From Escherichia coli (GTDB taxonomy: Bacteria > Pseudomonadota > Gammaproteobacteria > Enterobacterales > Enterobacteriaceae), in the NCBI RefSeq assembly GCF_024223415.1, contig NZ_CP100504.1: DNA of 63,428 nucleotides; one strand, 5' to 3'. Positions within the stretch are counted from its first letter, which is position 1. The number at the start of each line of letters is the position of its first letter. The notes below the pieces were generated by a model. That model ran no database searches and was not told the origin of the DNA. It saw nothing but the letters and a program-made list of their open reading frames with translations. The position numbers and the translations under genes are program-made. Positions 5,199 to 63,428 of the stretch are shown here, in pieces.

Positions 5199-6232
5199 TT
5201 ATTCCTTGAGCGGTAGATAATCACGGCAAAGAAAGGCACCCCAACCAGGGCGGTTACTACCCCAACGGGCAGACTTTGCGGGGCAATCAGCAGGCGCGAC
5301 GCAATGTCCGCCAGTACCATCAATATCGCCCCTGCCAGCGCGCTGGCGATCAGCAACGTTCGGTGCAGCGGGCCAAAGAAGAAACGCATCACGTGCGGCA
5401 CCACCAGGCCAACAAAGCCGATTGAGCCGGCCATGCTGACGATGGTGGCGGTGATCAGCGCCGCAGTGGTGAAGAGGATCAGGCGCACGCGCGGCACAGC
5501 AATCCCCAGCGAGGCGGCGGCATCGTCGCCGAAGGTGAACGCGTCCAGCGCCCGGGCATACCACAGGCAGACCGCCAGACCCGCGAGCACCACCACGATG
5601 ACCAACTGGAATTCGGGCCAGCGGACGCCGCTGAAGCTGCCCAGCAGCCAGAACATCACATCGCGCGCCTGCTGCGCGCTGGCGGTGGTGCTGATGGTAT
5701 AGGCCGTGATGGCGTTAAATAACTGCGAGGCGGCGACGCCCGCAAGAATCGTACGCTCATTGCCGCCGCGCGCGCCGTTAGTCAGCAAGGCGACAAAGGC
5801 GAAGGCGGCGAAGGCCCCGGCAAAGGCGCCTGCCGAGAGGGAAATTGCGCCAGAGCCAAGGCCCAGCACCACGATCGACACCGCGCCGGTGGAGGCCCCG
5901 GCGGAGACGCCGAGGACGTAGGGTTCGGCGAGGGCATTCTTCAGCAAGCTTTGCAGCACGACACCGCAGATAGCGAGGCCGGCGCCGCAGCAGGCGGCGA
6001 CCAGCGCGCGGCTGAGGCGGAAATCCCAGATAACGCTCTCATAGATATGGTTGAGCGGCTCAGCGGTTAAGCCGGTTCTGTTGCTGATAGCATAAAAGAC
6101 ATTCTGCAGCGGGATGGCCAGCTCGCCAACGCTGACGCCCACAGCGATCACCAGCGCCAGCACGATCGCTGCCAGTATACACCAGCCGGTGAGCAGTATG
6201 CTGCGGCACGTCTCAATCGCGCCGACGCTCAT
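5195..6232 (-). CDS. eitB: ABC transporter permease (FecCD family), EitB-like
   Basis: 345-aa polytopic membrane protein; stop and start overlap the flanking operon genes. Confidence 0.6.
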   Translation of the reverse strand: MSVGAIETCRSILLTGWCILAAIVLALVIAVGVSVGELAIPLQNVFYAISNRTGLTAEPLNHIYESVIWDFRLSRALVAACCGAGLAICGVVLQSLLKNALAEPYVLGVSAGASTGAVSIVVLGLGSGAISLSAGAFAGAFAAFAFVALLTNGARGGNERTILAGVAASQLFNAITAYTISTTASAQQARDVMFWLLGSFSGVRWPEFQLVIVVVLAGLAVCLWYARALDAFTFGDDAAASLGIAVPRVRLILFTTAALITATIVSMAGSIGFVGLVVPHVMRFFFGPLHRTLLIASALAGAILMVLADIASRLLIAPQSLPVGVVTALVGVPFFAVIIYRSRNK

Positions 6233-7230
6233 CAGTTCAGCCCCATTTTTCTCAGCTGCTCGCCCACCTGCTCCGCGCCGTAAAGCGTGCGAATGGTCGG
6301 ATTCATCGCCTGACCGTCCATGACCACGATATGGCCTTTTTTCACCGCCTCCAGCTGGCTGACGGCGGGATCGCTTTTGAGGAATTTGATCTTCTCCTCG
6401 GCTTTATCCAGCGCCCAGCGGTTACGATCCAGGCTGGCGACCACGATCACATCCGGGTTGGCGGCAATAATGCTCTCCCAGCTCACCGTGGGCCACTCGG
6501 TTTCGGAGGTAATCGCATTATGTCCGCCCAGCACGCTGGCGATAAATCCGGAGGCGCTGTTTTTGCCGCCGACATAGGCATCGGCCGAAGGTGAGGCGCT
6601 GGAGAACCAGAAGACGAAGGAGAGATCCTTTTTGCTTTTACCAAACTCCTGGCGCAGGTCGGCTTCACGTTTTTTGAAATCGGCAATCAGCGCCTGACCA
6701 CGATCTTCGACGTTGAAAATGCGGGAAAAATCGCTAATTTCCTGATACAGCCAGGTCATATCCCACAGCTTTTGCCGGCTGCCGTACATATCGCCGGTGG
6801 CCTTTTTGGTGGCGCATACCCCCGGTGAGAGGTAGCTGTTCACGCCGACGGTGGCGAGATCTTCACGCCTGGCGACTTTGCTTTCCGGCCCCAGCAGCAG
6901 CGGCAACTGGGCGGGAACGAAATCAGGATTTTGCGCCAGCACCGATTCCAGGCTCGGAATTTCCACCGTCAAGGTTTTAATCTTCGCGTTTTGCTCAGCC
7001 AGCTGCGGTAAAACGCTGTTCGGCCAGAAGGCGCTGGCGACCACCTGCTTTTGCAGCCCGAGCAGCAGCAGAATTTCGACCGTATTTTGCCCCAGCGCGA
7101 CCACGCGCTCCGGCGGCCGGGTGAAGGTCTCCTGATAGCCGCAGTTTTCAATCGTCAGGGGGTAGGTTGTTGCCAGCGCGGAACTGACGGCGGTGAACAT
7201 CAAGCCTAACGCGCAAAGGATCTTCTTCAT
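6232..7230 (-). CDS. eitA: periplasmic substrate-binding protein, EitA-like
   Basis: 332 aa with an N-terminal signal peptide (MKKILCALGLMFTAVSSALA); first gene of the operon. Confidence 0.6.
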   Translation of the reverse strand: MKKILCALGLMFTAVSSALATTYPLTIENCGYQETFTRPPERVVALGQNTVEILLLLGLQKQVVASAFWPNSVLPQLAEQNAKIKTLTVEIPSLESVLAQNPDFVPAQLPLLLGPESKVARREDLATVGVNSYLSPGVCATKKATGDMYGSRQKLWDMTWLYQEISDFSRIFNVEDRGQALIADFKKREADLRQEFGKSKKDLSFVFWFSSASPSADAYVGGKNSASGFIASVLGGHNAITSETEWPTVSWESIIAANPDVIVVASLDRNRWALDKAEEKIKFLKSDPAVSQLEAVKKGHIVVMDGQAMNPTIRTLYGAEQVGEQLRKMGLN

Positions 7231-48515: not shown

Positions 48516-48535
48516 TATTGTATGGGGAGATGATA

Positions 48536-49015
48536 ATGAGATGTTTAACCCATATTGCTCTGGTAACGGTGATACAGTTTATCGCCTGTTATCTGGCTGG
48601 TTGGGGGAATGCCGAAACAATTTTTATGCTGTTCTTCATAGTACTATGGCAGGGACTGTTTATATGGTTGTTCTCTCAAATACGAAAAAAACGGAATGTG
48701 TCGGATGAGTTTAAGTTTAGTAAAGGCGTTTGGTATATAACGATGCCAGTATCTTCCTTACTCTCTCCATTATTAAGCCTGATGGTTTTTATCATTGGTA
48801 CACTATACGAATTAAGGCGAGTTAGTGGTTGTGTAAGTGTAAGAGAATGGATGCAATCTCAGGTAAATGAACAAACTAATGAAGATTTGCATCTGGATTT
48901 TGATAATATGGATTTTCATCGTACTAATCCTGCAACAGGGTTACCTATGTCAGGTATTGGTGTGGATATCGGTGGTAATTCATATGGTTATAGTTCAAAA
49001 CGATATGATGAGTGA
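48536..49015 (+). CDS. traS: entry exclusion protein TraS
   Basis: ~159-aa hydrophobic inner-membrane protein between traG and traT; AT-rich as is typical for traS. Confidence 0.75.
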   Translation: MRCLTHIALVTVIQFIACYLAGWGNAETIFMLFFIVLWQGLFIWLFSQIRKKRNVSDEFKFSKGVWYITMPVSSLLSPLLSLMVFIIGTLYELRRVSGCVSVREWMQSQVNEQTNEDLHLDFDNMDFHRTNPATGLPMSGIGVDIGGNSYGYSSKRYDE

Positions 49016-49063
49016 ATCTTAATTTGTATATTATGACGTTTTATTCAATATGAAGGAACATTG

Positions 49064-49795
49064 ATGAAAATGAAAAAATTGATGATGGTTGCACTGGTCA
49101 GTTCCACTCTGGCCCTTTCAGGGTGTGGTGCGATGAGCACAGCAATCAAGAAGCGTAACCTTGAGGTGAAGACTCAGATGAGTGAGACCATCTGGCTTGA
49201 ACCCGCCAGCGAACGCACGGTATTTCTGCAGATCAAAAACACGTCTGATAAAGACATGAGTGGGCTGCAGGGTAAAATTGCTGATGCTGTGAAAGCAAAA
49301 GGATATCAGGTGGTGACTTCTCCGGATAAAGCCTACTACTGGATTCAGGCGAATGTGCTGAAGGCCGATAAGATGGATCTGCGGGAGTCTCAGGGATGGC
49401 TGAACCGTGGTTATGAAGGCGCAGCTGTTGGTGCAGCGTTAGGTGCCGGTATTACCGGCTATAACTCAAATTCTGCCGGTGCCACACTCGGTGTAGGCCT
49501 TGCTGCTGGTCTGGTGGGTATGGCTGCAGATGCGATGGTGGAAGATGTGAACTATACCATGATCACGGATGTGCAGATTGCAGAGCGTACTAAGGCAACG
49601 GTGACAACGGATAATGTTGCCGCCCTGCGTCAGGGCACATCAGGTGCGAAAATTCAGACCAGTACTGAAACGGGTAACCAGCATAAATACCAGACCCGTG
49701 TGGTCTCAAATGCGAACAAGGTTAACCTGAAATTTGAAGAGGCGAAGCCTGTTCTCGAAGACCAGCTGGCCAAATCAATCGCAAATATTCTCTGA
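49064..49795 (+). CDS. traT: surface exclusion lipoprotein TraT
   Basis: 243 aa from [26 protein letters not shown] (lipobox); matches TraT. Confidence 0.95.
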
Positions 49796-52777: not shown

Positions 52778-52974
52778 AACCGGAAGAAGAGATGGAACAG
52801 CAACTGCCACCCGGGATCAGTGAATCCGGTGAAGTGGTGGATATGGCCGCTTATGAGGCATGGCAACAGGAAAATCATCCGGACATCCAGCAGCAGATGC
52901 AGCGTCGTGAAGAGGTGAACATTAATGTGCACCGGGAGCGTGGGGAGGATGTTGAGCCGGGAGATGATTTCTGA
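52774..52974 (+). CDS. small acidic hypothetical protein between traD and traI
   Basis: 66-aa ORF overlapping the traD stop and ending exactly at the traI start. Confidence 0.45.
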
Positions 52975-55900
52975 TGATGAGTATCGCGCAGGTCAGATCG
53001 GCCGGAAGTGCCGGTAACTATTATACCGACAAGGATAATTACTATGTACTGGGCAGCATGGGAGAACGCTGGGCCGGCAGGGGGGCTGAACAGCTGGGAC
53101 TGCAGGGCAGTGTCGATAAGGATGTTTTTACCCGTCTTCTGGAGGGAAGGCTGCCGGACGGAGCGGATCTAAGCCGCATGCAGGATGGCAGTAATAAGCA
53201 TCGTCCCGGCTACGACCTGACCTTCTCCGCCCCCAAAAGTGTCTCCATGATGGCCATGCTCGGGGGGGACAAACGTCTTATTGAAGCACATAACCAGGCC
53301 GTGGACTTTGCTGTTCGTCAGGTGGAGGCGCTGGCCTCCACACGGGTGATGACGGACGGACAGTCAGAAACGGTACTGACCGGTAATCTGGTGATGGCAC
53401 TGTTTAACCACGACACCAGTCGCGATCAGGAACCACAGTTACATACGCATGCGGTGGTGGCTAATGTCACGCAGCATAACGGTGAGTGGAAGACACTGAG
53501 CAGTGACAAAGTGGGGAAAACGGGGTTCATTGAGAATGTGTACGCTAATCAGATTGCCTTTGGCAGGCTCTACCGGGAAAAACTGAAAGAGCAGGTTGAG
53601 GCGCTGGGCTATGAAACCGAAGTGGTGGGTAAGCACGGTATGTGGGAGATGCCGGGCGTACCGGTGGAGGCCTTTTCCGGACGCTCACAGACTATCCGGG
53701 AGGCCGTCGGGGAAGATGCCTCGCTGAAATCCCGGGATGTGGCGGCACTGGATACGCGAAAATCCAAACAGCACGTCGATCCTGAAGTCAGAATGGCTGA
53801 ATGGATGCAGACGCTGAAGGAAACCGGGTTCGACATCCGGGCATATCGTGACGCGGTGGATCAGCGTGCGGAGACCCGCACGCAGGCGCCCGGGGCTGTT
53901 TCACAGGAGGGGCCGGATGTGCAGCAGGCGGTGACACAGGCGATTGCCGGATTAAGTGAACGAAAAATGCAGTTTACGTACACGGACGTGCTGGCCAGAA
54001 CGGTCGGTATACTGCCGCCGGAAAATGGTGTGATTGAACGGGCACGCGCCGGTATCGATGAGGCCATCAGTCGTGAGCAGCTTATCCCCCTCGACCGTGA
54101 GAAGGGGCTGTTCACATCAGGAATTCATGTGCTCGATGAGCTGTCCGTCCGGGCACTCAGTCGTGACATCATGAAACAGAACCGGGTGACCGTACATCTG
54201 GAGAAAAGTGTCCCCCGGACGGCTGGTTACAGCGATGCGGTCAGTGTTCTGGCACAGGACCGTCCGTCGCTGGCCATTGTGTCCGGGCAGGGCGGTGCAG
54301 CCGGGCAGCGTGAGCGGGTGGCTGAACTGGTCATGATGGCCCGGGAGCAGGGGCGGGAGGTGCAGATTATCGCCGCTGACCGTCGCTCGCAGATGAACCT
54401 GAAGCAGGATGAACGGCTGTCCGGTGAGCTGATAACCGGACGTCGTCAGCTGCAGGAGGGCATGGCCTTCACGCCGGGCAGTACTGTTATCGTCGACCAG
54501 GGCGAAAAACTCTCCCTGAAAGAGACGTTAACCCTGCTGGACGGTGCCGCACGTCATAACGTACAGGTCCTGATAACCGACAGCGGGCAGCGAACCGGTA
54601 CAGGCAGTGCACTGATGGCCATGAAGGATGCCGGGGTGAACACGTATCGCTGGCAGGGCGGAGAACAGCGACCGGCCACCATCATCAGTGAACCGGACCG
54701 GAATGTCCGCTATGACCGGCTGGCCGGAGATTTTGCGGCCAGCGTGAAAGCCGGAGAAGAGAGCGTGGCACAGGTCAGCGGGGTACGGGAACAGGCCATA
54801 CTGACACAGGCCATTCGCAGTGAGCTGAAAACACAGGGCGTGCTCGGACACCCGGAGGTGACCATGACGGCACTGTCACCGGTCTGGCTGGACAGCCGGA
54901 GCCGTTATCTGCGGGATATGTACCGACCGGGGATGGTGATGGAGCAGTGGAACCCGGAGACACGCAGTCATGACCGCTATGTTATCGACCGGGTGACGGC
55001 GCAGAGTCACAGCCTGACCCTGCGGGATGCGCAGGGCGAAACGCAGGTGGTGCGTATTTCCTCCCTGGACAGCAGCTGGTCGCTGTTCCGGCCGGAAAAA
55101 ATGCCGGTGGCAGACGGCGAGCGACTGAGGGTGACAGGGAAAATTCCCGGACTCCGCGTCTCCGGCGGTGACCGCCTGCAGGTGGCATCCGTCAGTGAAG
55201 ATGCGATGACGGTTGTTGTGCCGGGGCGGGCTGAACCGGCCACCCTGCCTGTGGCTGATTCACCGTTCACGGCACTGAAGCTGGAGAACGGCTGGGTGGA
55301 AACGCCCGGGCATTCCGTCAGCGACAGTGCGAAGGTTTTTGCCTCCGTCACACAGATGGCAATGGACAACGCCACCCTGAACGGTCTGGCCCGCAGTGGT
55401 CGTGATGTCCGGCTGTATTCTTCACTGGATGAAACCCGTACTGCGGAAAAACTTGCCCGCCATCCCTCCTTTACGGTGGTTTCTGAGCAGATAAAGGCGC
55501 GTGCCGGTGAGACATTGCTGGAAACCGCTATCAGTCTGCAGAAAGCCGGGCTTCACACGCCGGCACAGCAGGCTATTCATCTGGCCCTTCCTGTGCTGGA
55601 AAGTAAAAACCTGGCCTTCAGCATGGTGGACCTGCTGACAGAGGCGAAGTCGTTTGCTGCAGAAGGAACCAGTTTTACTGAACTGGGAGGGGAAATCAAT
55701 GCGCAGATAAAACGCGGTGATTTACTGTATGTGGATGTGGCAAAAGGCTATGGCACAGGCCTGCTGGTTTCCCGTGCGTCGTATGAGGCAGAAAAGAGCA
55801 TTCTTCGCCATATTCTCGAAGGTAAGGAGGCGGTCACGCCGCTGATGGAGAGAGTACCTGGCGAACTCATGGAGAAACTGACATCAGGACAGCGTGCCGC

Positions 55901-58244
55901 CACCCGCATGATACTGGAAACGTCCGACCGTTTCACGGTGGTGCAGGGCTATGCCGGTGTGGGTAAGACCACACAGTTCCGGGCGGTGATGTCAGCCGTG
56001 AACATGCTGCCGGAGAGTGAGCGTCCCCGTGTCGTTGGGCTGGGTCCCACGCACCGCGCGGTCGGGGAGATGCGCAGCGCCGGCGTGGATGCACAGACAC
56101 TGGCGTCCTTTCTGCATGACACGCAGCTGCAGCAGCGCAGCGGAGAAACGCCGGATTTCAGCAACACGCTGTTCCTGCTCGATGAGAGCTCAATGGTGGG
56201 CAATACCGACATGGCACGGGCATACGCCCTGATTGCGGCCGGTGGCGGTCGTGCTGTGGCCAGCGGTGACACGGACCAGCTGCAGGCCATCGCGCCCGGT
56301 CAGCCTTTCCGTCTCCAGCAGACGCGCAGTGCTGCCGATGTGGTCATCATGAAGGAGATTGTGCGTCAGACGCCGGAACTGCGGGAGGCGGTATACAGCC
56401 TGATTAACCGGGATGTGGAAAGGGCACTGTCCGGGCTTGAGAGTGTGAAACCGTCTCAGGTTCCCCGTCAGGAGGGCGCATGGGCACCGGAGCACTCCGT
56501 GACGGAGTTCAGTCACAGCCAGGAAGCGAAACTGGCAGAAGCGCAGCAGAAGGCGATGCTGAAAGGCGAGGCTTTCCCGGATATCCCCATGACACTGTAT
56601 GAAGCCATTGTCCGCGACTATACCGGCAGGACACCGGAAGCACGGGAGCAGACGCTGATTGTCACACACCTGAATGAGGACCGGCGCGTACTGAACAGCA
56701 TGATTCATGATGCACGGGAAAAGGCCGGTGAGCTGGGCAAAGAGCAGGTCATGGTGCCTGTCCTGAACACAGCGAATATACGTGACGGAGAACTGCGTCG
56801 TCTCTCCACCTGGGAGAATAACCCGGATGCCCTTGCCCTGGTGGATAGTGTGTATCACCGGATTGCCGGTATCAGCAAGGATGACGGGCTGATAACCCTG
56901 GAGGATGCGGAAGGTAACACGCGGCTGATTTCGCCCCGGGAGGCGGTGGCTGAAGGCGTCACACTGTACACCCCGGACACCATCCGGGTGGGAACCGGTG
57001 ACCGGATGCGCTTCACGAAGAGTGACCGGGAGCGCGGTTATGTGGCCAACAGCGTCTGGACGGTGACAGCGGTTTCCGGTGACAGTGTCACGCTGTCGGA
57101 CGGACAGCAGACCCGGGTGATTCGCCCCGGTCAGGAGCGGGCAGAGCAACATATTGACCTGGCTTATGCCATCACCGCCCACGGTGCGCAGGGGGCAAGT
57201 GAAACCTTTGCCATCGCGCTTGAAGGCACGGAAGGTAACCGGAAACTGATGGCAGGCTTTGAGTCAGCTTATGTAGCCCTGTCGCGTATGAAGCAGCATG
57301 TGCAGGTGTACACCGATAACCGTCAGGGCTGGACGGATGCCATCAACAATGCCGTACAGAAAGGAACTGCCCACGATGTGTTTGAACCGAAACCGGACCG
57401 GGAGGTCATGAATGCAGAGCGGCTGTTCAGTACGGCGCGGGAGCTGCGGGACGTGGCGGCAGGCCGTGCCGTTCTTCGTCAGGCGGGACTTGCCGGGGGA
57501 GACAGTCCTGCACGGTTTATTGCTCCGGGACGTAAATATCCGCAACCGTATGTGGCACTGCCGGCTTTTGACCGTAACGGCAGGTCCGCCGGTATCTGGC
57601 TGAACCCGCTGACCACGGATGACGGAAACGGGCTGCGGGGATTCAGCGGTGAAGGCCGGGTGAAAGGCAGCGGGGATGCACAGTTTGTGGCCCTGCAGGG
57701 CAGCCGTAACGGAGAGAGCCTGCTGGCTGATAATATGCAGGATGGTGTCCGGATTGCCCGTGATAATCCTGACAGCGGTGTGGTGGTGAGAATCGCCGGT
57801 GAAGGCCGTCCGTGGAATCCCGGTGCCATCACCGGTGGTCGCGTGTGGGGGGATATCCCGGACAACAGCGTCCAGCCGGGGGCCGGAAATGGTGAACCGG
57901 TTACAGCTGAAGTGCTGGCACAGCGGCAGGCTGAAGAGGCCATCCGCCGTGAAACGGAACGTCGCGCAGATGAAATTGTCCGTAAAATGGCAGAGAACAA
58001 ACCTGACCTGCCGGATGGCAGAACAGAGCAGGCTGTCAGGGAGATTGCCGGGCAGGAGCGTGACCGGGCTGCCATAACTGAACGGGAAGCCGCGCTGCCG
58101 GAGAGTGTGCTGCGTGAATCACAACGGGAGCGGGAAGCGGTCCGGGAGGTTGCCCGGGAAAATCTGCTGCAGGAGCGTCTGCAGCAGATGGAGCGGGATA
58201 TGGTCCGTGACCTGCAGAAAGAGAAAACCCTGGGCGGAGACTGA
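52974..58244 (+). CDS. traI: relaxase/helicase TraI
   Basis: 1756 aa starting [27 protein letters not shown] (relaxase domain) followed by helicase motifs. Confidence 0.95.
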   Translation: MMSIAQVRSAGSAGNYYTDKDNYYVLGSMGERWAGRGAEQLGLQGSVDKDVFTRLLEGRLPDGADLSRMQDGSNKHRPGYDLTFSAPKSVSMMAMLGGDKRLIEAHNQAVDFAVRQVEALASTRVMTDGQSETVLTGNLVMALFNHDTSRDQEPQLHTHAVVANVTQHNGEWKTLSSDKVGKTGFIENVYANQIAFGRLYREKLKEQVEALGYETEVVGKHGMWEMPGVPVEAFSGRSQTIREAVGEDASLKSRDVAALDTRKSKQHVDPEVRMAEWMQTLKETGFDIRAYRDAVDQRAETRTQAPGAVSQEGPDVQQAVTQAIAGLSERKMQFTYTDVLARTVGILPPENGVIERARAGIDEAISREQLIPLDREKGLFTSGIHVLDELSVRALSRDIMKQNRVTVHLEKSVPRTAGYSDAVSVLAQDRPSLAIVSGQGGAAGQRERVAELVMMAREQGREVQIIAADRRSQMNLKQDERLSGELITGRRQLQEGMAFTPGSTVIVDQGEKLSLKETLTLLDGAARHNVQVLITDSGQRTGTGSALMAMKDAGVNTYRWQGGEQRPATIISEPDRNVRYDRLAGDFAASVKAGEESVAQVSGVREQAILTQAIRSELKTQGVLGHPEVTMTALSPVWLDSRSRYLRDMYRPGMVMEQWNPETRSHDRYVIDRVTAQSHSLTLRDAQGETQVVRISSLDSSWSLFRPEKMPVADGERLRVTGKIPGLRVSGGDRLQVASVSEDAMTVVVPGRAEPATLPVADSPFTALKLENGWVETPGHSVSDSAKVFASVTQMAMDNATLNGLARSGRDVRLYSSLDETRTAEKLARHPSFTVVSEQIKARAGETLLETAISLQKAGLHTPAQQAIHLALPVLESKNLAFSMVDLLTEAKSFAAEGTSFTELGGEINAQIKRGDLLYVDVAKGYGTGLLVSRASYEAEKSILRHILEGKEAVTPLMERVPGELMEKLTSGQRAATRMILETSDRFTVVQGYAGVGKTTQFRAVMSAVNMLPESERPRVVGLGPTHRAVGEMRSAGVDAQTLASFLHDTQLQQRSGETPDFSNTLFLLDESSMVGNTDMARAYALIAAGGGRAVASGDTDQLQAIAPGQPFRLQQTRSAADVVIMKEIVRQTPELREAVYSLINRDVERALSGLESVKPSQVPRQEGAWAPEHSVTEFSHSQEAKLAEAQQKAMLKGEAFPDIPMTLYEAIVRDYTGRTPEAREQTLIVTHLNEDRRVLNSMIHDAREKAGELGKEQVMVPVLNTANIRDGELRRLSTWENNPDALALVDSVYHRIAGISKDDGLITLEDAEGNTRLISPREAVAEGVTLYTPDTIRVGTGDRMRFTKSDRERGYVANSVWTVTAVSGDSVTLSDGQQTRVIRPGQERAEQHIDLAYAITAHGAQGASETFAIALEGTEGNRKLMAGFESAYVALSRMKQHVQVYTDNRQGWTDAINNAVQKGTAHDVFEPKPDREVMNAERLFSTARELRDVAAGRAVLRQAGLAGGDSPARFIAPGRKYPQPYVALPAFDRNGRSAGIWLNPLTTDDGNGLRGFSGEGRVKGSGDAQFVALQGSRNGESLLADNMQDGVRIARDNPDSGVVVRIAGEGRPWNPGAITGGRVWGDIPDNSVQPGAGNGEPVTAEVLAQRQAEEAIRRETERRADEIVRKMAENKPDLPDGRTEQAVREIAGQERDRAAITEREAALPESVLRESQREREAVREVARENLLQERLQQMERDMVRDLQKEKTLGGD

Positions 58245-58263
58245 TACAGGAAGACAAACACTG

Positions 58264-59010
58264 ATGACAACGGATAACACGAATACGACACGTAACGATT
58301 CACTGGCTGCACGGACCGATACCTGGTTGCAGTCGTTTCTGGTCTGGTCACCCGGACAGCGGGATATCATCAAAACGGTGGCACTGGTGCTGATGGTACT
58401 GGACCACATCAATCTGATATTCCAGCTGAAGCAGGAATGGATGTTTCTGGCCGGGCGAGGAGCCTTTCCGCTGTTTGCCCTGGTGTGGGGGCTGAATCTG
58501 TCCCGTCATGCGCATATCCGGCAACCGGCCATTAACCGGCTGTGGGGATGGGGAATTATTGCCCAGTTCGCATATTATCTGGCCGGCTTTCCCTGGTATG
58601 AGGGGAATATCCTGTTTGCCTTTGCAGTGGCGGCACAGGTGCTGACGTGGTGTGAAACGCGCAGTGGGTGGCGTACGGCAGCGGCCATTCTTCTGATGGC
58701 CCTGTGGGGGCCCTTGTCCGGCACCAGTTACGGCATTGCCGGGCTGCTGATGCTGGCAGTCAGCCACCGGCTGTACCGGGCGGAAGACAGAGCGGAACGT
58801 CTGGCGCTGGTCGCCTGCCTGCTGGCTGTTATTCCGGCGCTTAACCTTGCCACCAGTGATGCAGCGGCGGTGGCCGGTCTTGTGATGACGGTGCTGACCG
58901 TTGGTCTGGTGTCGTGTGCAGGAAAATCATTACCCCGTTTCTGGCCCGGGGATTTTTTCCCGGTATTCTACGCCTGTCATCTGGCTGTGCTGGGCGTTCT
59001 GGCGCCGTGA
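58264..59010 (+). CDS. traX: pilin N-acetylase TraX
   Basis: 248-aa polytopic membrane protein from MTTDNTNTTRN; last tra gene before finO. Confidence 0.85.
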   Translation: MTTDNTNTTRNDSLAARTDTWLQSFLVWSPGQRDIIKTVALVLMVLDHINLIFQLKQEWMFLAGRGAFPLFALVWGLNLSRHAHIRQPAINRLWGWGIIAQFAYYLAGFPWYEGNILFAFAVAAQVLTWCETRSGWRTAAAILLMALWGPLSGTSYGIAGLLMLAVSHRLYRAEDRAERLALVACLLAVIPALNLATSDAAAVAGLVMTVLTVGLVSCAGKSLPRFWPGDFFPVFYACHLAVLGVLAP

Positions 59011-59064
59011 CGGGTGTGGTATCTTTGACCGTAACAGGATGATTCGTCAGAGGCAGAACACAGC

Positions 59065-59625
59065 ATGACAGAGCAGAAGCGACCGGTACTGACACTGAAG
59101 CGGAAAACGGAAGGGGAGACGCCTGTCCGCAGCCGGAAAACCATCATCAATGTCACCACGCCACCAAAGTGGAAGGTGAAAAAGCAGAAGCTGGCCGAGA
59201 AAGCAGCCCGGGAAGCAGAGCTGGCGGCAAAAAAAGCGCAGGCCAGACAGGCACTGTCCATTTATCTGAACCTGCCCACGCTGGATGAGGCCGTGAATAC
59301 CCTGAAACCCTGGTGGCCGGGATTGTTTGACGGTGACACGCCCCGGCTTCTGGCCTGCGGTATCCGGGACGTGTTACTGGAAGACGTGGCGCAGCGGAAT
59401 ATCCCGCTCTCGCATAAAAAACTGCGCAGGGCGCTGAAGGCCATCACCCGTTCAGAAAGCTATCTGTGTGCCATGAAAGCCGGTGCCTGCCGGTATGACA
59501 CGGAAGGGTATGTGACGGAGCATATTTCTCAGGAGGAGGAAGCGTATGCGGCAGCGCGTCTGGATAAAATCCGCCGCCAGAACCGGATAAAGGCAGAACT
59601 TCAGGCCGTGCTTGATGAGAAATAA
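59065..59625 (+). CDS. finO: fertility inhibition protein FinO (intact)
   Basis: 186 aa starting [14 protein letters not shown]...; matches FinO; uninterrupted. Confidence 0.9.
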
Positions 59626-59755
59626 AAAAGCCTCCGTCAGAGAGAGGAGGCAGGGAAATAAGGCTTAAAGGAAATAACTTCCGTACCCAAAAGGAAATCG
59701 GTCCACTGAATTATTTAACACCATAATGCTGACGGGTTAAAGAGGAGTGATAAAG

Positions 59756-59968
59756 ATGAATGGATTCAGAAACAGTTCACGGAACGGTCAGGTCTGGCGC
59801 TGGCAGCGTGCCGGAAGCCGGGCCGTTATTCTGGAGGTCAGTGGACGCTGGATGGAAGCGGCAGAAGCATGGCGACGGGCTGCCGGTGTTGCACCCCGGA
59901 CAGACTGGCAGCAGTTTGCCCGAAAAAGGGCTGAACAATGCCACCGACGCTGCCGGGGAAGGGTGTAA
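59756..59968 (+). CDS. small Arg/Trp-rich hypothetical protein
   Basis: 70-aa ORF with strong RBS agaggag 8 nt upstream. Confidence 0.45.
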   Translation: MNGFRNSSRNGQVWRWQRAGSRAVILEVSGRWMEAAEAWRRAAGVAPRTDWQQFARKRAEQCHRRCRGRV

Positions 59969-60212
59969 CGAAAAAGCAGCCTTCATTACTCCAGGGATTC
60001 AGAAGGCTGAATAATGCATGAGATTTGCTTTTTTTAATATCCGGTCGGGCAGTATGACCGGACAGTTCTGAGTAGCACAGAGTTTTTTCCGTATTAAGTC
60101 GTGATTTTATATTTTGTGATTAATTTCGCAAAATAAGGTGTTATTCAGTGTGTGCTGCGATATTCAGGATTACCTGAAATACAGGTGCCATTTATCTGAT
60201 ATGGAGAATAAT

Positions 60213-60674
60213 ATGAGGAAATATATTCCACTGGTATTATTTATCTTTTCATGGCCGGTATTGTGTGCAGATATTCATGGACGGGTTGTTCGTGTACTGG
60301 ACGGTGATACCATCGAGGTCATGGACTCACGGAAGGCAGTGCGGATCAGGCTGGTAAATATTGATGCACCGGAAAAGAAACAGGATTATGGCCGGTGGTC
60401 AACGGACATGATGAAATCACTGGTTGCAGGAAAAACGGTTACCGTCACATATTTTCAGCGAGATCGTTATGGTCGTATTCTCGGGCAGGTTTATGCACCA
60501 GACGGAATGAATGTTAATCAGTTTATGGTCCGGGCCGGGGCTGCCTGGGTATATGAGCAGTACAACACAGATCCCGTGCTGCCTGTCCTTCAGAACGAAG
60601 CCAGACAACAAAAACGTGGGCTCTGGTCAGATGCTGATCCGGTTCCCCCCTGGATATGGAGACACCGTAAATAA
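60213..60674 (+). CDS. nuc: secreted thermonuclease (staphylococcal nuclease homologue)
   Basis: 153 aa from MRKYIPLVLFIFSWPVLCA (signal peptide); SNase-like motifs (VLDGDTIEV, RLVNIDAPE); RBS ggaga. Confidence 0.75.
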   Translation: MRKYIPLVLFIFSWPVLCADIHGRVVRVLDGDTIEVMDSRKAVRIRLVNIDAPEKKQDYGRWSTDMMKSLVAGKTVTVTYFQRDRYGRILGQVYAPDGMNVNQFMVRAGAAWVYEQYNTDPVLPVLQNEARQQKRGLWSDADPVPPWIWRHRK

Positions 60675-60719
60675 AGCGATGGCAATCTTATCATTCATCT
60701 GTTCTCAGCGGGAATAAAA

Positions 60720-60929
60720 ATGGCGAAAACAAAACAGGAATGGCTGTATCAGTTACGGCGATGTTCATCAGTCAATACGCTGGAAAAAATTATTCATAAA
60801 AACAGAGACAGTTTATTAAACAGTGAACGTGAATCATTTAATTCAGCAGCAGACCACCGGTTAGCGGAATTAATCACCGGAAAGTTATATGACAGGATAC
60901 CAAAAGAGATATGGAAATATGTAAGGTAA
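60720..60929 (+). CDS. small hypothetical protein
   Basis: 69-aa ORF 37 bp upstream of the DUF2726-like gene. Confidence 0.4.
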   Translation: MAKTKQEWLYQLRRCSSVNTLEKIIHKNRDSLLNSERESFNSAADHRLAELITGKLYDRIPKEIWKYVR

Positions 60930-60966
60930 TAATTCAACATAATTAATTTCCAGGAACAGATAAATA

Positions 60967-61557
60967 ATGAAGTTGATTATTTTTATTCTCATTGTTCTGA
61001 TTATTGCAGCGTTACTTATCCGGATTATCCTCAGAAGTGTAAATCAGCATTCTCCTTTGCTGATGCAGTTACATGCGGCAGGTATACGGACCGGTGATGC
61101 AGAGCGAATACTGTCCGGCGGTGAATACTGGCAACGTCAGAAGACGCTGCTGACAGAAAGGGAAGTCAGTTTTATGAAAGGACTGTTCAGAATTGTGGAT
61201 ATGAAGCGGTGGTATCTGTGTCCGCAGGTACGGGTCGCGGATATCGTCCAGCTGAACGGGAATATCCGGCCACGATCACGCCAGTGGTGGCAGTTATTCA
61301 GGATGGTGTCTCAGTGGCATGTTGATGTGGTTATCGTTGAGCGGCGTTCGTTCAGTATTGTTGCAGCAGTAGAGCTGGATGATGCCAGCCATTTACGACC
61401 GGAACGCAGACGCCGGGATATTCTTCTGGAAGAGGTTCTGAGGCAGGCTGGTATTCCGTTGCTCAGAAGCCACGATGCCAGAAAACTGCTGCAGATGACC
61501 GGAGAATGGCTGAATACAACAGGGGCTGATCAGCAGTCCCCGGAACATCGTAGCTGA
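60967..61557 (+). CDS. membrane-anchored DUF2726-like protein (predicted nuclease-related fold)
   Basis: 196 aa with an N-terminal TM helix (MKLIIFILIVLIIAALLIRIIL) and acidic and basic residues spaced like a PD-(D/E)xK-type motif (HVDVVIVERR...VELDD); family call from memory. Confidence 0.55.
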   Translation: MKLIIFILIVLIIAALLIRIILRSVNQHSPLLMQLHAAGIRTGDAERILSGGEYWQRQKTLLTEREVSFMKGLFRIVDMKRWYLCPQVRVADIVQLNGNIRPRSRQWWQLFRMVSQWHVDVVIVERRSFSIVAAVELDDASHLRPERRRRDILLEEVLRQAGIPLLRSHDARKLLQMTGEWLNTTGADQQSPEHRS

Positions 61558-61640
61558 CGCCTTCGCGTTGCTCAGTTGTCCAACCCCGGAAACGGGAAAA
61601 AGCAAGTTTTCCCCGCTCCCGGCGTTTCCGTAATAAAAAA
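61554..61640. repeat. ~80-bp conserved intergenic motif, copy B
   Basis: ctgacgccttcgcgttgctcagttgtccaaccccgg ... ctcccggcgtttccgtaataaaaaacgggaaatgg; begins at the DUF2726-like stop codon. Confidence 0.8.
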
Positions 61641-61711
61641 CGGGAAATGGTGGTCACAGAATAAATTCCGGAACTACCTGTACCCAAACTTTATATAATA
61701 AAGGTGAATAT

Positions 61712-62161
61712 ATGGAATATGATGATGTATCAGAATTGATGATTAAGCGTGAACACAATATTCTTATTGTTGGGAATTCTGCCTCCCACATTGATAAGTT
61801 TTTTAAGGAGTATTCTATACCAAGTTCTAAATATTATGATTTCACTCAGATTAACAGTGATTCAGATGTAGAGAGAAATGAGAATGCTGTCTCTTTTATC
61901 AGGGATGCAATGAATAGTGAAGAGCTCACAATCATTTTTAATTGCGTTGGGTGGCCTGATTTAGGTGGTGGATCAGCAGTATCACTGTTTGCAATGATGG
62001 CCAGAAAATTTGGTAAACAACTTATTGTCGCTGTAAGTGAAAAGTATGCCATCAAATTAAAAGACAACTTTGATATTATTGGGATGTTGTCATATGGTAA
62101 AGAAAATTTTATTGCCATGAGTCATACGAAAAGCGAGTTAACTGGAGGGAAACGTCGGTAA
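61712..62161 (+). CDS. hypothetical protein with a Gly-rich (GGGS) loop
   Basis: 149-aa ORF with RBS aaaggtga; pattern of hydrophobic strands (ILIVGN, TIIFNCVGWPDLGGGSAVS, QLIVAV) suggests a Rossmann-like fold; AT-rich. Confidence 0.5.
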   Translation: MEYDDVSELMIKREHNILIVGNSASHIDKFFKEYSIPSSKYYDFTQINSDSDVERNENAVSFIRDAMNSEELTIIFNCVGWPDLGGGSAVSLFAMMARKFGKQLIVAVSEKYAIKLKDNFDIIGMLSYGKENFIAMSHTKSELTGGKRR

Positions 62162-62206
62162 CGGATTAAAAATAGATGTAAATAAAAAGCATACTTATTG
62201 GCTGGA

Positions 62207-62250
62207 GTGACGCCTTCGTGCTTCGGTAGTAAAAAACGGGAAATGAAGGT
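62207..62250. repeat. partial copy C of the conserved intergenic motif
   Basis: tgacgccttcgtgcttcggtagtaaaaaacgggaaatgaagg shares both ends with copy B but lacks the central part; lies upstream of srnB. Confidence 0.6.
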
Positions 62251-62375
62251 AATAGTCAGCAACAGGGAATGTGGTATTATCGCGGCGGGTGTCTGAGCCT
62301 TTCTGGTTCAGGCAAGACGCAGGTACCAGAAATGCGAAGACCCCACTTGTTAATCCATTAACTCGTGAGGTCTGC

Positions 62376-62582
62376 ATGAAGTACTTGAACACTACTGATT
62401 GTAGCCTCTTCCTTGCAGAGAGGTCAAAGTTTATGACGAAATATGCCCTTATCGGGTTGCTCGCCGTGTGCGCCACGGTGTTGTGTTTTTCACTGATATT
62501 CAGGGAACGGTTATGTGAACTGAATATTCACAGGGGAAATACAGTGGTGCAGGTAACTCTGGCCTACGAAGCACGGAAGTAA
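62376..62582 (+). CDS. srnB: SrnB (Hok/Gef-family membrane toxin locus)
   Basis: 68-aa ORF MKYLNTTDCSLFLAERSKFMTKYALIGLLAVCATVLCFSLIFRERLCELNIHRGNTVVQVTLAYEARK; Hok-like core starts at MTKYAL; a GC-rich fold-back region follows. Confidence 0.8.
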   Translation: MKYLNTTDCSLFLAERSKFMTKYALIGLLAVCATVLCFSLIFRERLCELNIHRGNTVVQVTLAYEARK

Positions 62583-62865
62583 GCTGCCGGGCGGGGACGG
62601 AAGTCCCCGCTTTCCGGGAGTGTGAGGTATTTCAGGGGCAGACACCCTACACGTCAGAAACCGCCGGTCCCGCCCGGGGCCGGCACACAGGTTAAGGCAT
62701 TTCCTGTTTTTCAGCCATTTCGCAACAAAATTCACACTAAACGACAGTAATCCCCGTTGATTTGTGCGCCAACACAGATCGTCGTCACAATTCTCAAGTC
62801 GCTGATTTCAAAAAACTGTAGTATCCTCTGCGAAACGATCCCTGTTTGAGTATTGAGGAGGCGGG

Positions 62866-63126
62866 ATGTCGCAGATCGAAAATGCAGTAACTTCCTCACC
62901 GAAACGCATTTACAGAAAAGGTAATCCGTTAACCGGAGCCGAGAAACAACGTATATCTGTTTCCCGGAAAAAGGGGACACATAAAGCGATTAATGTTTTC
63001 ATCCAGAGTGAACTCAAAGATGATTTGACACAGCTTTGTAAAGATTCGGGCTTAACTCAAAAAGAAATGATAGAGCACTGGATTTTGAAAGAAAAAGCTG
63101 CGATGGATAATGCGAATAGAAGGTAA
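62866..63126 (+). CDS. repA2: replication regulator RepA2 (CopB)
   Basis: 86 aa starting MSQIENAVTSS..., CopB-like; sits upstream of the copA/tap/repA1 control region. Confidence 0.8.
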   Translation: MSQIENAVTSSPKRIYRKGNPLTGAEKQRISVSRKKGTHKAINVFIQSELKDDLTQLCKDSGLTQKEMIEHWILKEKAAMDNANRR

Positions 63127-63169
63127 CTAAGTTACTTTCTTGAACATTTGAATTGCGGATGCTAGATTA

Positions 63170-63265
63170 CTGATCGTTTAAGGAATTTTGTGGCTGGCCA
63201 CGCCGTAAGGTGGCAGGGAACTGGTTCTGATGTGGATTTACAGGAGCCAGAAAAGTGAAAACCCC
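63170..63265 (-). ncRNA. copA: CopA antisense RNA (approximate)
   Basis: Stem-loop-rich region between repA2 and tap; placed by analogy with R1/R100 copy-number control; ends not determinable by eye. Confidence 0.4.
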
Positions 63266-63361
63266 GATAATCTTCAGCAAGTTTGGCGACTAAGAGAAGA
63301 TTAACGGGGCCATCTAAAAACCGTATAGCCAACAATTCAGCTATGCGGGGAGTATAGTTAT

Positions 63362-63428
63362 ATGCCCGGAAAAGTTCAAGACTTCTTTCTGTGCTCACTC
63401 CTTCTGCGCATTGTAAGTGCAGGATGGT
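63362..63428 (+). CDS. tap: RepA leader peptide Tap (RepA6), 5' part; continues on bases 1-6
   Basis: [22 protein letters not shown] encoded to the window end; joining to bases 1-6 gives ...WCD-stop, with the repA1 GTG overlapping (translational coupling). Confidence 0.8.

Follow-up and report, generated by a model that had tools for sequence, protein, structure and literature searches.

The closest described counterpart of the locus analysed here is the backbone of the R100/R1-type IncFII plasmids, in which finO is followed by yigA, yigB, rmoA, a DUF2726 gene, hok/srnB and repA2. The names yigA, yigB and rmoA are those used for R100, and the DUF2726 gene is probably yihA. Older annotations of the post-finO genes list yigA as a "conserved hypothetical" and yigB as a "putative nuclease". 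In the ANR (AraC negative regulator) family, published members have H-NS and AraC-type activators as binding partners (PMC5570504, PMC4983702), and a survey of PD-(D/E)xK enzymes put DUF2726 in the Vsr/DUF559 branch; in the literature searched, no function is reported for any DUF2726 protein. Our subject is positions 59756 to 62161 of a 63,428-nucleotide (nt) stretch of Escherichia coli DNA (NCBI RefSeq assembly GCF_024223415.1, contig NZ_CP100504.1), the whole of which we call the window. The genes and elements in question are as follows.

59756..59968, plus strand: yigA-type small basic protein of 70 amino acids (aa), the first gene after finO
59865..60048, minus strand: AS-pc02 small RNA, Rfam RF02876 'Antisense to pHK01_099'
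60213..60674, plus strand: yigB-type thermonuclease, 153-aa precursor, Pfam SNase PF00565
60213-60269, plus strand: signal-peptide-like residues 1-19 of that precursor, with n-h-c layout
60720..60929, plus strand: rmoA, Hha/YmoA-family H-NS co-regulator, 69 aa
60967..61557, plus strand: DUF2726 protein, 196 aa, with an anchor at about residues 3-20 and a Vsr/DUF559-like PD-(D/E)xK domain at about 60-186
61626..61659: upstream copy of a 34-nt direct repeat found by repeat search (82% identity, spacing 596 nt)
61712..62161, plus strand: 149-aa mini P-loop protein with degenerate Walker A/B motifs
62222..62255: downstream copy of the direct repeat, found by repeat search and pairwise alignment

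We conclude that this is the ordinary, previously annotated post-finO gene set of R100-type F-like resistance plasmids, and that the locus is a known, much-sequenced and annotated plasmid backbone, the distal part of an R100-like IncFII plasmid. Our best explanation, to which we give a probability of about 0.7, is that the interval between finO and the RepFIIA replicon is a variable accessory zone, a mosaic of separately acquired genes and not one machine, whose members would have the separate roles proposed below. When 59626-62300 was compared by megablast with 72,556 plasmid records, at least 5000 matched, and the best of these are 98-99.9% identical over the full length and belong to E. coli and Shigella IncFII plasmids. 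The matching RefSeq plasmids carry the five genes with identical gene calls. All five open reading frames listed by the initial annotation are present at the stated coordinates, on the plus strand, with conserved homologues and RefSeq entries. We regard them as real genes and not chance frames because each has homologues in which the protein is conserved despite DNA differences, and because of their ratios of nonsynonymous to synonymous change (dN/dS). Against a 98%-identical Shigella plasmid, dN/dS is 0.31 for the 70-aa frame, 0.06 for the DUF2726 gene and 0.12 for finO, and the SNase and 69-aa proteins are identical; against an 84%-identical allele the SNase gene gives 0.17. The final 10 kb of the window leads from the distal end of an F-type transfer region to a RepFIIA replicon, with TraG, a TraS-position frame, TraT, TraD, TraI (52974-58244), TraX and FinO (59065-59625, NCBIfam 363 bits) upstream in this order.

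The mosaic origin of the zone is suggested because GC content changes in steps, repeats flank the last gene and the modules separate among plasmids. GC content in the five genes is, in order, 61, 48, 37, 50 and 35%. Between finO and repA2, pEntH10407 has the first four genes without the 149-aa gene or hok, and pS88 has only yigA and yigB. The zone of pECO-fce has an ANR-like gene, a SNase gene, a 72-aa mini P-loop fragment and a full mini P-loop gene, without Hha or DUF2726 genes, and that of a Salmonella IncF plasmid is made up differently again (PIN-domain gene in place of SNase, Hha, DUF2726). The PIN-domain gene was seen in the post-finO zone of the Salmonella IncF plasmid (L016 1276-1953) and of Klebsiella pIT-01C22 (L017 161-763), and is a further recurrent gene of nuclease fold in this region.

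Part of the zone does hold together. SNase, Hha and DUF2726 genes are contiguous in at least 2206 plasmid records, where the counts for the single genes are 2467 (SNase) and 2433 (DUF2726). The gaps are 45 nt between SNase and rmoA and 37 nt between rmoA and DUF2726, with no predicted terminator between them. The three genes travel together in the E. coli lineage and may form a single transcript. Gene spacing is the basis for any operon structure here, because a scan for promoters and terminators did no better than shuffled sequence (7 against 6.9 expected, and 6 against 4.0).

The two small frames, which the initial annotation had left as unknown, can now be placed in families by searches with hidden Markov models (HMMs), the 69-aa protein in the Hha family and the 70-aa protein, at the borderline, in the ANR family. 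The 69-aa protein is RmoA, the Hha-family protein of R100. It scores 95.7 bits on NCBIfam Hha NF008191 (cut-off 90) with residues 4-69 covered, and the published polymerase chain reaction primers for R100 rmoA, CGAAAACAAAACAGGAATGG and TTACCTTACATATTTCCATATC, match the two ends of the frame. The SAADHRLAEL segment is intact, and with the profile offset of 3 its D45 falls at Hha position 48. Hha needs D48 for H-NS binding (PMC4519777). For the sequence of rmoA and the effect of the gene on conjugation, the paper that gives the primers refers to Nieto et al. 1998. The conjugation review that we consulted does not mention nuc, rmoA or Hha.

The 70-aa protein has 15 Arg (21%), 5 Trp (7%) and an isoelectric point of 11.9, so its earlier description as Arg/Trp-rich was right. 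AGGAG lies 10 nt 5' of the ATG at 59756; a GTG start at 59747 (73 aa) was considered and dropped in favour of this ATG. On the NCBIfam model NF033650 (ANR_neg_reg) the protein scores 27 bits (E 2.9e-6, 49 of 54 HMM positions), where the curated cut-off is 32. The Shigella allele, 97% identical with two residues different, reaches 33.1 bits and is named ANR family in RefSeq, and diverged homologues at the same position score 29 and 23.5 bits. In pECO-fce and in F-like plasmids of Salmonella the gene right behind finO codes for a homologue at 34-47% identity, and these homologues share the pattern E-G-AA-AW-AP-W-FA-RA-C. Taken together the profile matches point to a borderline member of the ANR family. 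The ANR literature searched does not mention finO-linked or conjugative-plasmid members. The small RNA AS-pc02 matches RF02876 over its full length (1-185, 202 bits with a gathering score of 40, E 1.5e-53); this previously described plasmid RNA covers the ANR-like gene in antisense over its 3' 104 nt and extends 80 nt past it. We propose that YigA and RmoA would be small protein-binding regulators acting through H-NS or through partner activators, and that they would tune the silencing of plasmid and host genes, transfer included. The block does not look like a two-nuclease unit, because its small frames appear to be regulators of the H-NS circuit.

The second gene codes for a nuclease of the staphylococcal fold, as the initial annotation had it. 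The protein matches Pfam SNase PF00565 with an E-value of 9.8e-31 over model positions 1-107 of 107, and thermonuclease structures in the PDB match residues 25-141 (E 2.7e-14). The S. aureus residues D21, R35, D40, E43, Y85 and R87 are kept as D32, R46, D51, E54, Y86 and R88, where D21 and D40 are Ca2+ ligands and R35, E43 and R87 catalytic residues; the S. aureus numbering used here agrees with the HMMER alignment to the PDB thermonuclease. Identity to the S. aureus enzyme is about 30%, the omega loop (44-49) is absent, Y113 is replaced by Trp, and T41, which binds Ca2+ through its backbone, is replaced by Ala. With the full catalytic set of staphylococcal nuclease in place, the domain looks catalytically competent. 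The NCBIfam equivalog cut-offs for EcnA and NucI were not reached.

The N-terminus of this protein, MRKYIPLVLFIFSWPVLCA followed by DIHG, has the n-h-c layout of a signal peptide, with a basic MRK, a hydrophobic core of 14 residues and LCA before the D, which puts a small residue at -1, and has no lipobox. An allele of 84% identity keeps the same layout (MKKYIPVVLFVFSCQVFSA followed by D), so that the signal-peptide-like N-terminus is found in two diverged alleles, and we infer export from it. GGAG stands 8 nt 5' of the ATG at 60213; a GTG start at 60138 (178 aa) was rejected, since this ATG has the GGAG, exposes the putative signal peptide and is the RefSeq call. YigB would then be a Sec-exported, Ca2+-dependent and non-specific nuclease that attacks DNA and RNA in the periplasm or on the surface of the cell. 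F-like plasmids would have in it their equivalent of the periplasmic endonucleases known from other conjugative plasmids. Its targets could include extracellular or transforming DNA but not DNA delivered by conjugation. Conjugative single-stranded DNA passes through the channel of the type IV secretion system, and because of this route a periplasmic nuclease should not reach it.

The same enzyme might instead be cargo that benefits the host and has no role for the plasmid, serving in the scavenging of extracellular DNA, the remodelling of biofilms or mating aggregates, or the escape of pathogenic E. coli and Shigella from neutrophil DNA traps. Staphylococcal Nuc has such roles. The SNase gene, present in 3466 plasmid records, is common on plasmids from E. 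coli, Shigella and Klebsiella of clinical and animal origin, and genes named yigB are transcribed, as measured on pS88, and anaerobically induced on the Shigella virulence plasmid (log2 fold change 2.56). However, the protein has no evident route past the periplasm, and its recurrent pairing with DUF2726 and fixed position beside the replicon suggest a backbone gene. We consider host cargo a tentative alternative, and on balance rather unlikely.

The fourth gene codes for the DUF2726 protein, and here most of the earlier description has stood up. Pfam DUF2726 (PF10881) matches at E 1.8e-21, alongside a weaker match to REase_MTES_1575, and the N-terminal hydrophobic helix has a mean Kyte-Doolittle value of 3.4. 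This helix is retained in all seven F-like lineages compared (41-73% identity), in which D92, H118, D120, E136, D139 and H142 are invariant as well, giving the motif D120...E136-x-D-D-x-x-H142. The PD-(D/E)xK-like motif proposed at first is borne out by these residues and by the Vsr/DUF559-like fold, and the residues may be catalytic by analogy with related enzymes. Modelling with AlphaFold on the basis of 17 orthologues gave a structure of moderate quality (pLDDT, the model's own confidence score, 66 overall and 70-89 in the core) with a restriction-endonuclease-like fold. Its structural neighbours are Vsr and the homing endonuclease I-Bth0305I, and the profile matches likewise fit the DUF2726/Vsr-like nucleases. 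No meaningful match to this protein came up when PDB sequences were searched (best E 0.15), leaving fold comparison as the informative approach.

Where the nuclease domain of this protein lies bears directly on what it could do. By the positive-inside rule the positively charged flank of a membrane helix stays cytoplasmic. The 17 orthologues have 0-1 Lys/Arg before the helix and 1-5, mostly 3-5, in the 15 residues after it, and because of this bias we place the domain, probably, at the cytoplasmic face of the inner membrane and not in the periplasm. The suggestion of two envelope-targeted nucleases therefore holds in part: the SNase has a signal-peptide-like N-terminus and the DUF2726 protein is anchored, but its domain is predicted to be cytoplasmic. 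We propose that it would be an endonuclease tethered to the inner membrane which cuts or nicks DNA at the cytoplasmic membrane face.

Across F-like plasmids the DUF2726 gene is a near-universal companion of the distal transfer region and the most conserved element of the zone. Of 72,556 plasmid records, at least 5000 matched the domain by tblastn, among them some 1700 from Klebsiella at 60-64% identity, and at least 4139 of the best 5000 matching plasmids are typed conjugative. In F-like plasmids of Klebsiella (IncFII(K)), Enterobacter, Salmonella and Edwardsiella the gene is flanked by the end of the transfer region on one side and the replicon on the other. On the Edwardsiella plasmid (L018 4824-5390) it follows a finO-like frame and precedes a replication gene. 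On E. coli pE2528C1_95 (L019 4827-5393) it stands between traI and traX with a 4-nt overlap with traX.

This distribution could also be explained if the DUF2726 protein were a transfer-related nicking endonuclease beside the type IV secretion system and the other genes were unrelated cargo. Such an enzyme might, for example, resolve or trim the transferred strand, or act on donor or recipient DNA at the mating junction. Its location where the transfer region ends, conserved in each of the six F-like lineages examined, its place inside the operon in pE2528C1_95, the predominance of conjugative plasmids among its carriers, the very low dN/dS and its likeness to Vsr and I-Bth0305I, which are site-specific or nicking enzymes, would all fit. 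Against this, the gene is absent from the conjugative F-like plasmids pS88 and pECO-fce, and, as far as we know, genetics has not placed it among the essential transfer genes of F. IncX4 and IncI2 backbones, whose transfer systems are unrelated, are reported to carry DUF2726 genes too. We hold a dedicated transfer enzyme to be unlikely and prefer a mosaic zone in which this gene is the most conserved part.

The exported nuclease beside DUF2726 is not always the same. The SNase gene is absent from the Klebsiella, Enterobacter, Salmonella, Edwardsiella and pE2528C1_95 loci examined for DUF2726. A PLD-family protein of 181-184 aa is found beside repA2 in the Klebsiella and Enterobacter loci and in one of the three Salmonella loci, and the PLD-family genes near repA2 and DUF2726 are these.

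L009 8023-8577: PLD-family gene (Enterobacter)
L014 6729-7274: PLD-family gene (Salmonella)
L017 2572-3123: PLD-family gene (Klebsiella)
L020 5868-6419: PLD-family gene (Klebsiella)

In the two copies that were translated, one from Enterobacter and one from Salmonella, the signal peptide is clear and an HKD-type motif is present; the weak NCBIfam matches of these two are to the nuclease NucT. The alternation of SNase and PLD genes looks like the non-orthologous replacement of an exported nuclease. No such nuclease is annotated near DUF2726 in the Edwardsiella plasmid or in pE2528C1_95, and the recurrence amounts to only two independent arrangements.

These arrangements bear on the proposal made from the first inspection of the window, that the exported SNase and the anchored DUF2726 protein form an envelope barrier which destroys incoming plasmid, phage or transforming DNA. 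Both nuclease domains are intact and under purifying selection, and their genes co-occur in about 90% of E. coli-type plasmids. The exported PLD nuclease that accompanies DUF2726 in Klebsiella, Enterobacter and Salmonella resembles the replacement of one function by an unrelated gene, and DUF2726 domains are elsewhere fused to abortive-infection N-terminal domains (PMC3710099). However, one of the two domains is predicted to lie in the cytoplasm, and the genes separate: pS88 and pECO-fce have only the SNase, and the Edwardsiella plasmid and pE2528C1_95 have only DUF2726. The co-occurrence may reflect clonal linkage, given that no more than two independent arrangements were seen. Conjugative DNA and most phage DNA do not travel through the free periplasm, and E. 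coli has no natural competence. A search with PADLOC-DB 2.0 identified no defence system, its sole hit being the SNase domain to the candidate 'SNc+LTD' (E 4e-15, at the level of the domain), with none for the other four proteins at E<=0.1; PHROGs gave only generic nuclease or unknown families for the block. The canonical exclusion genes of F are TraS and TraT, none of the five proteins matches either, and TraT and a TraS-position frame already lie upstream. None of our results speaks directly for a barrier of this kind, and we regard it as distinctly unlikely.

A narrower form of the idea is that DUF2726 and an exported nuclease, SNase or PLD, make up a conserved backbone function of F-type plasmids that destroys nucleic acid entering by the route the plasmid itself opens. 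Candidate targets would be the single-stranded DNA or RNA genomes of pilus-specific phages in the periplasm and the DNA of competitor plasmids at the inner membrane. We think this very unlikely. If true, it would be an undescribed plasmid-borne envelope immunity, distinct from TraS/TraT exclusion.

The last of the five genes was an orphan at the outset, and the HMM and structure searches proposed for it came out differently: the 149-aa protein has no match in Pfam, NCBIfam, PADLOC or PHROGs, but a degenerate P-loop fold could be recognised. There are 59 close homologues with a clear conservation pattern, and those with a named source come from E. coli or Shigella, mostly from plasmid contigs. 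Pairwise dN/dS is 0.25-0.64; positive selection was considered for this fast-diverging gene and rejected, as the ratios are relaxed and not above 1. A TAT-to-TAA change shortens the window allele relative to alleles of 154-157 aa. About 15 distant relatives, full-length and 20-31% identical, came out of a profile search against 1.84 billion representative proteins. The three-layer alpha/beta P-loop fold is present. In place of the Walker A motif of the relatives (G-x-TGSGKS) the window protein has G21-NSASHIDK, which departs from GxxxxGK[ST], and in place of their Walker B motif LILD (hhhLD) it has IIFN77, which departs from hhhhD/E. The protein thus appears to keep a minimal P-loop fold in which the motifs for nucleotide binding have been lost, and a nucleoside triphosphatase (NTPase) function is probably absent.

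This gene also differs from the others in how it is distributed and bounded. It is found in 643 plasmid records (382 at 80% coverage or more), compared with about 3400 for the nuclease genes. The direct repeats on either side of it, together with its 35% GC, suggest the insertion of a cassette between DUF2726 and hok/sok, and TGACGCCTTCG recurs at about 61555 and about 62209. As a presumed cassette coding for a probably ATPase-dead mini P-loop protein, it would have at most a binding or adaptor role. In pECO-fce a 72-aa fragment of a second mini P-loop paralogue (L015 3630-3848) lies just upstream of the full copy, so members of the family are duplicated and decay in this zone.

The relatives with intact Walker motifs, of about 150 aa, are all on conjugative elements. 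One (L003 5001-5456) sits between pilQ-like and pilR-like genes in a thin-pilus operon, and another (L005 6001-6456) between TrbC/VirB2 and VirB3/4 genes in a VirB-type secretion operon. Others lie upstream of a plasmid topoisomerase III gene, among them one with Hha and H-NS genes adjoining (L006 958-1446) and two with H-NS adjoining (L007 and L008, both 6001-6480). A further member of the family is at L004 699-1139.

Several observations weigh against the mosaic and the roles that we assign within it. The linkage of SNase, Hha and DUF2726 genes at about 90% in E. coli-type plasmids could reflect a functional operon rather than a mosaic, and an exported nuclease, of one fold or the other, recurs beside DUF2726, which hints at a function in common. 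The ANR score of the window allele is under the NCBIfam cut-off, and the interval 58000-63428 contains no AraC-type gene that could be its partner. The charge bias around the DUF2726 anchor is weak in the window protein (1 Lys/Arg before it and 2 after) and strong only across the family, and this topology, like the signal peptide of the SNase, is predicted from sequence rules alone. The yigB genes of pS88 and pWR501 are matched to the window SNase gene by name and not by sequence.

The remaining features of the distal region are given here for completeness.

48518-49015: TraS-position frame
49061-49795: TraT (546 bits)
62287-62443, plus strand: Rfam sok match (93.5 bits) of a hok/sok-type locus, with a Hok-family frame that ends at 62582
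62866-63126: repA2/copB (137 bits)
63253-63344, minus strand: CopA RNA (Rfam)

The sok match lies on the same strand as the mok/hok frames (62376-62582) and not antisense to them, which probably reflects the way the Rfam sok family was constructed. Some genes seen in other plasmids have their own interest. An acidic hypothetical protein of about 102 aa is encoded near DUF2726 in three loci (L017 2160-2468, L020 5456-5764 and L009 7369-7677). In Klebsiella its gene comes directly after DUF2726 and overlaps its stop, and in the Enterobacter locus L009 it lies further downstream, after a 180-aa gene. The window has no counterpart of it, and such a location would fit a nuclease partner or inhibitor. 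On Klebsiella pJX2-1 (L020 9316-10402) genes for a patatin-like phospholipase and a DncV-like cyclic GMP-AMP synthase form a CBASS-type defence pair about 1 kb downstream of the replication initiator gene.

For the most part this is routine annotation of the backbone of a very common family of resistance and virulence plasmids, and it changes little. The residual value lies in three of the five genes (SNase, DUF2726 and mini P-loop), which are widespread without a reported function. We add three modest points: the orphan is identified as a degenerate mini P-loop protein, the DUF2726 domain probably lies in the cytoplasm, and DUF2726 is found to be conserved across F-like lineages with SNase and PLD nucleases swapping beside it. 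This occurrence of an exported nuclease of two unrelated folds beside DUF2726 is the main point that makes the question worth asking and the best support for a nuclease theme. F-like plasmids carry many of the resistance genes of Enterobacteriaceae, so a role of these genes in competition, phage resistance or transfer would matter in practice.

Compared with described systems, each protein keeps the features of a known family and departs from it in some respect. The 70-aa protein resembles ANR members such as Aar of enteroaggregative E. coli and Rnr in size, basic charge and profile match, whereas the window allele scores below the cut-off, has no AraC/XylS regulator adjacent and has an antisense RNA of its own. 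RmoA belongs with E. coli Hha and R27 Hha in the Hha/YmoA family by its score above the cut-off and its conserved H-NS-contact segment. Its gene is plasmid-borne, as are the hha genes of R27 and IncX plasmids; in contrast to R27, IncX and the loci L006-L008, no plasmid H-NS gene adjoins rmoA in the window.

For the nucleases, YigB shares with S. aureus nuclease A and with RP4 ParB, a plasmid-borne SNase homologue, the Pfam match, the conserved D21, D40, E43, R35 and R87, and a signal-peptide-like N-terminus. Its host, unlike that of nuclease A, is Gram-negative, so its likely destination is the periplasm, and we know of no link to a multimer-resolution locus of the kind that RP4 ParB has. The periplasmic endonucleases of the pKM101 Nuc/NucT type in the PLD family are likewise small exported non-specific nucleases on a conjugative backbone, although their fold and chemistry are unrelated (an HKD motif as against a Ca2+-dependent SNase) and the window has no PLD gene. 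The DUF2726 protein differs from the other members of the Vsr/DUF559/I-Bth0305I branch by its added N-terminal membrane anchor and a linker of about 40 residues. The 149-aa protein matches the minimal P-loop NTPases of conjugative elements, a family without a name, in fold, length and profile (E 1e-14 to 1e-4), whereas its clade has lost the GK[ST] of Walker A and the Asp of Walker B. As a whole, the locus has the same genes in the same order as the R100/R1-type IncFII backbone, at 98-99.9% DNA identity, and holds in addition the 149-aa mini P-loop gene, in an allele with a premature stop.

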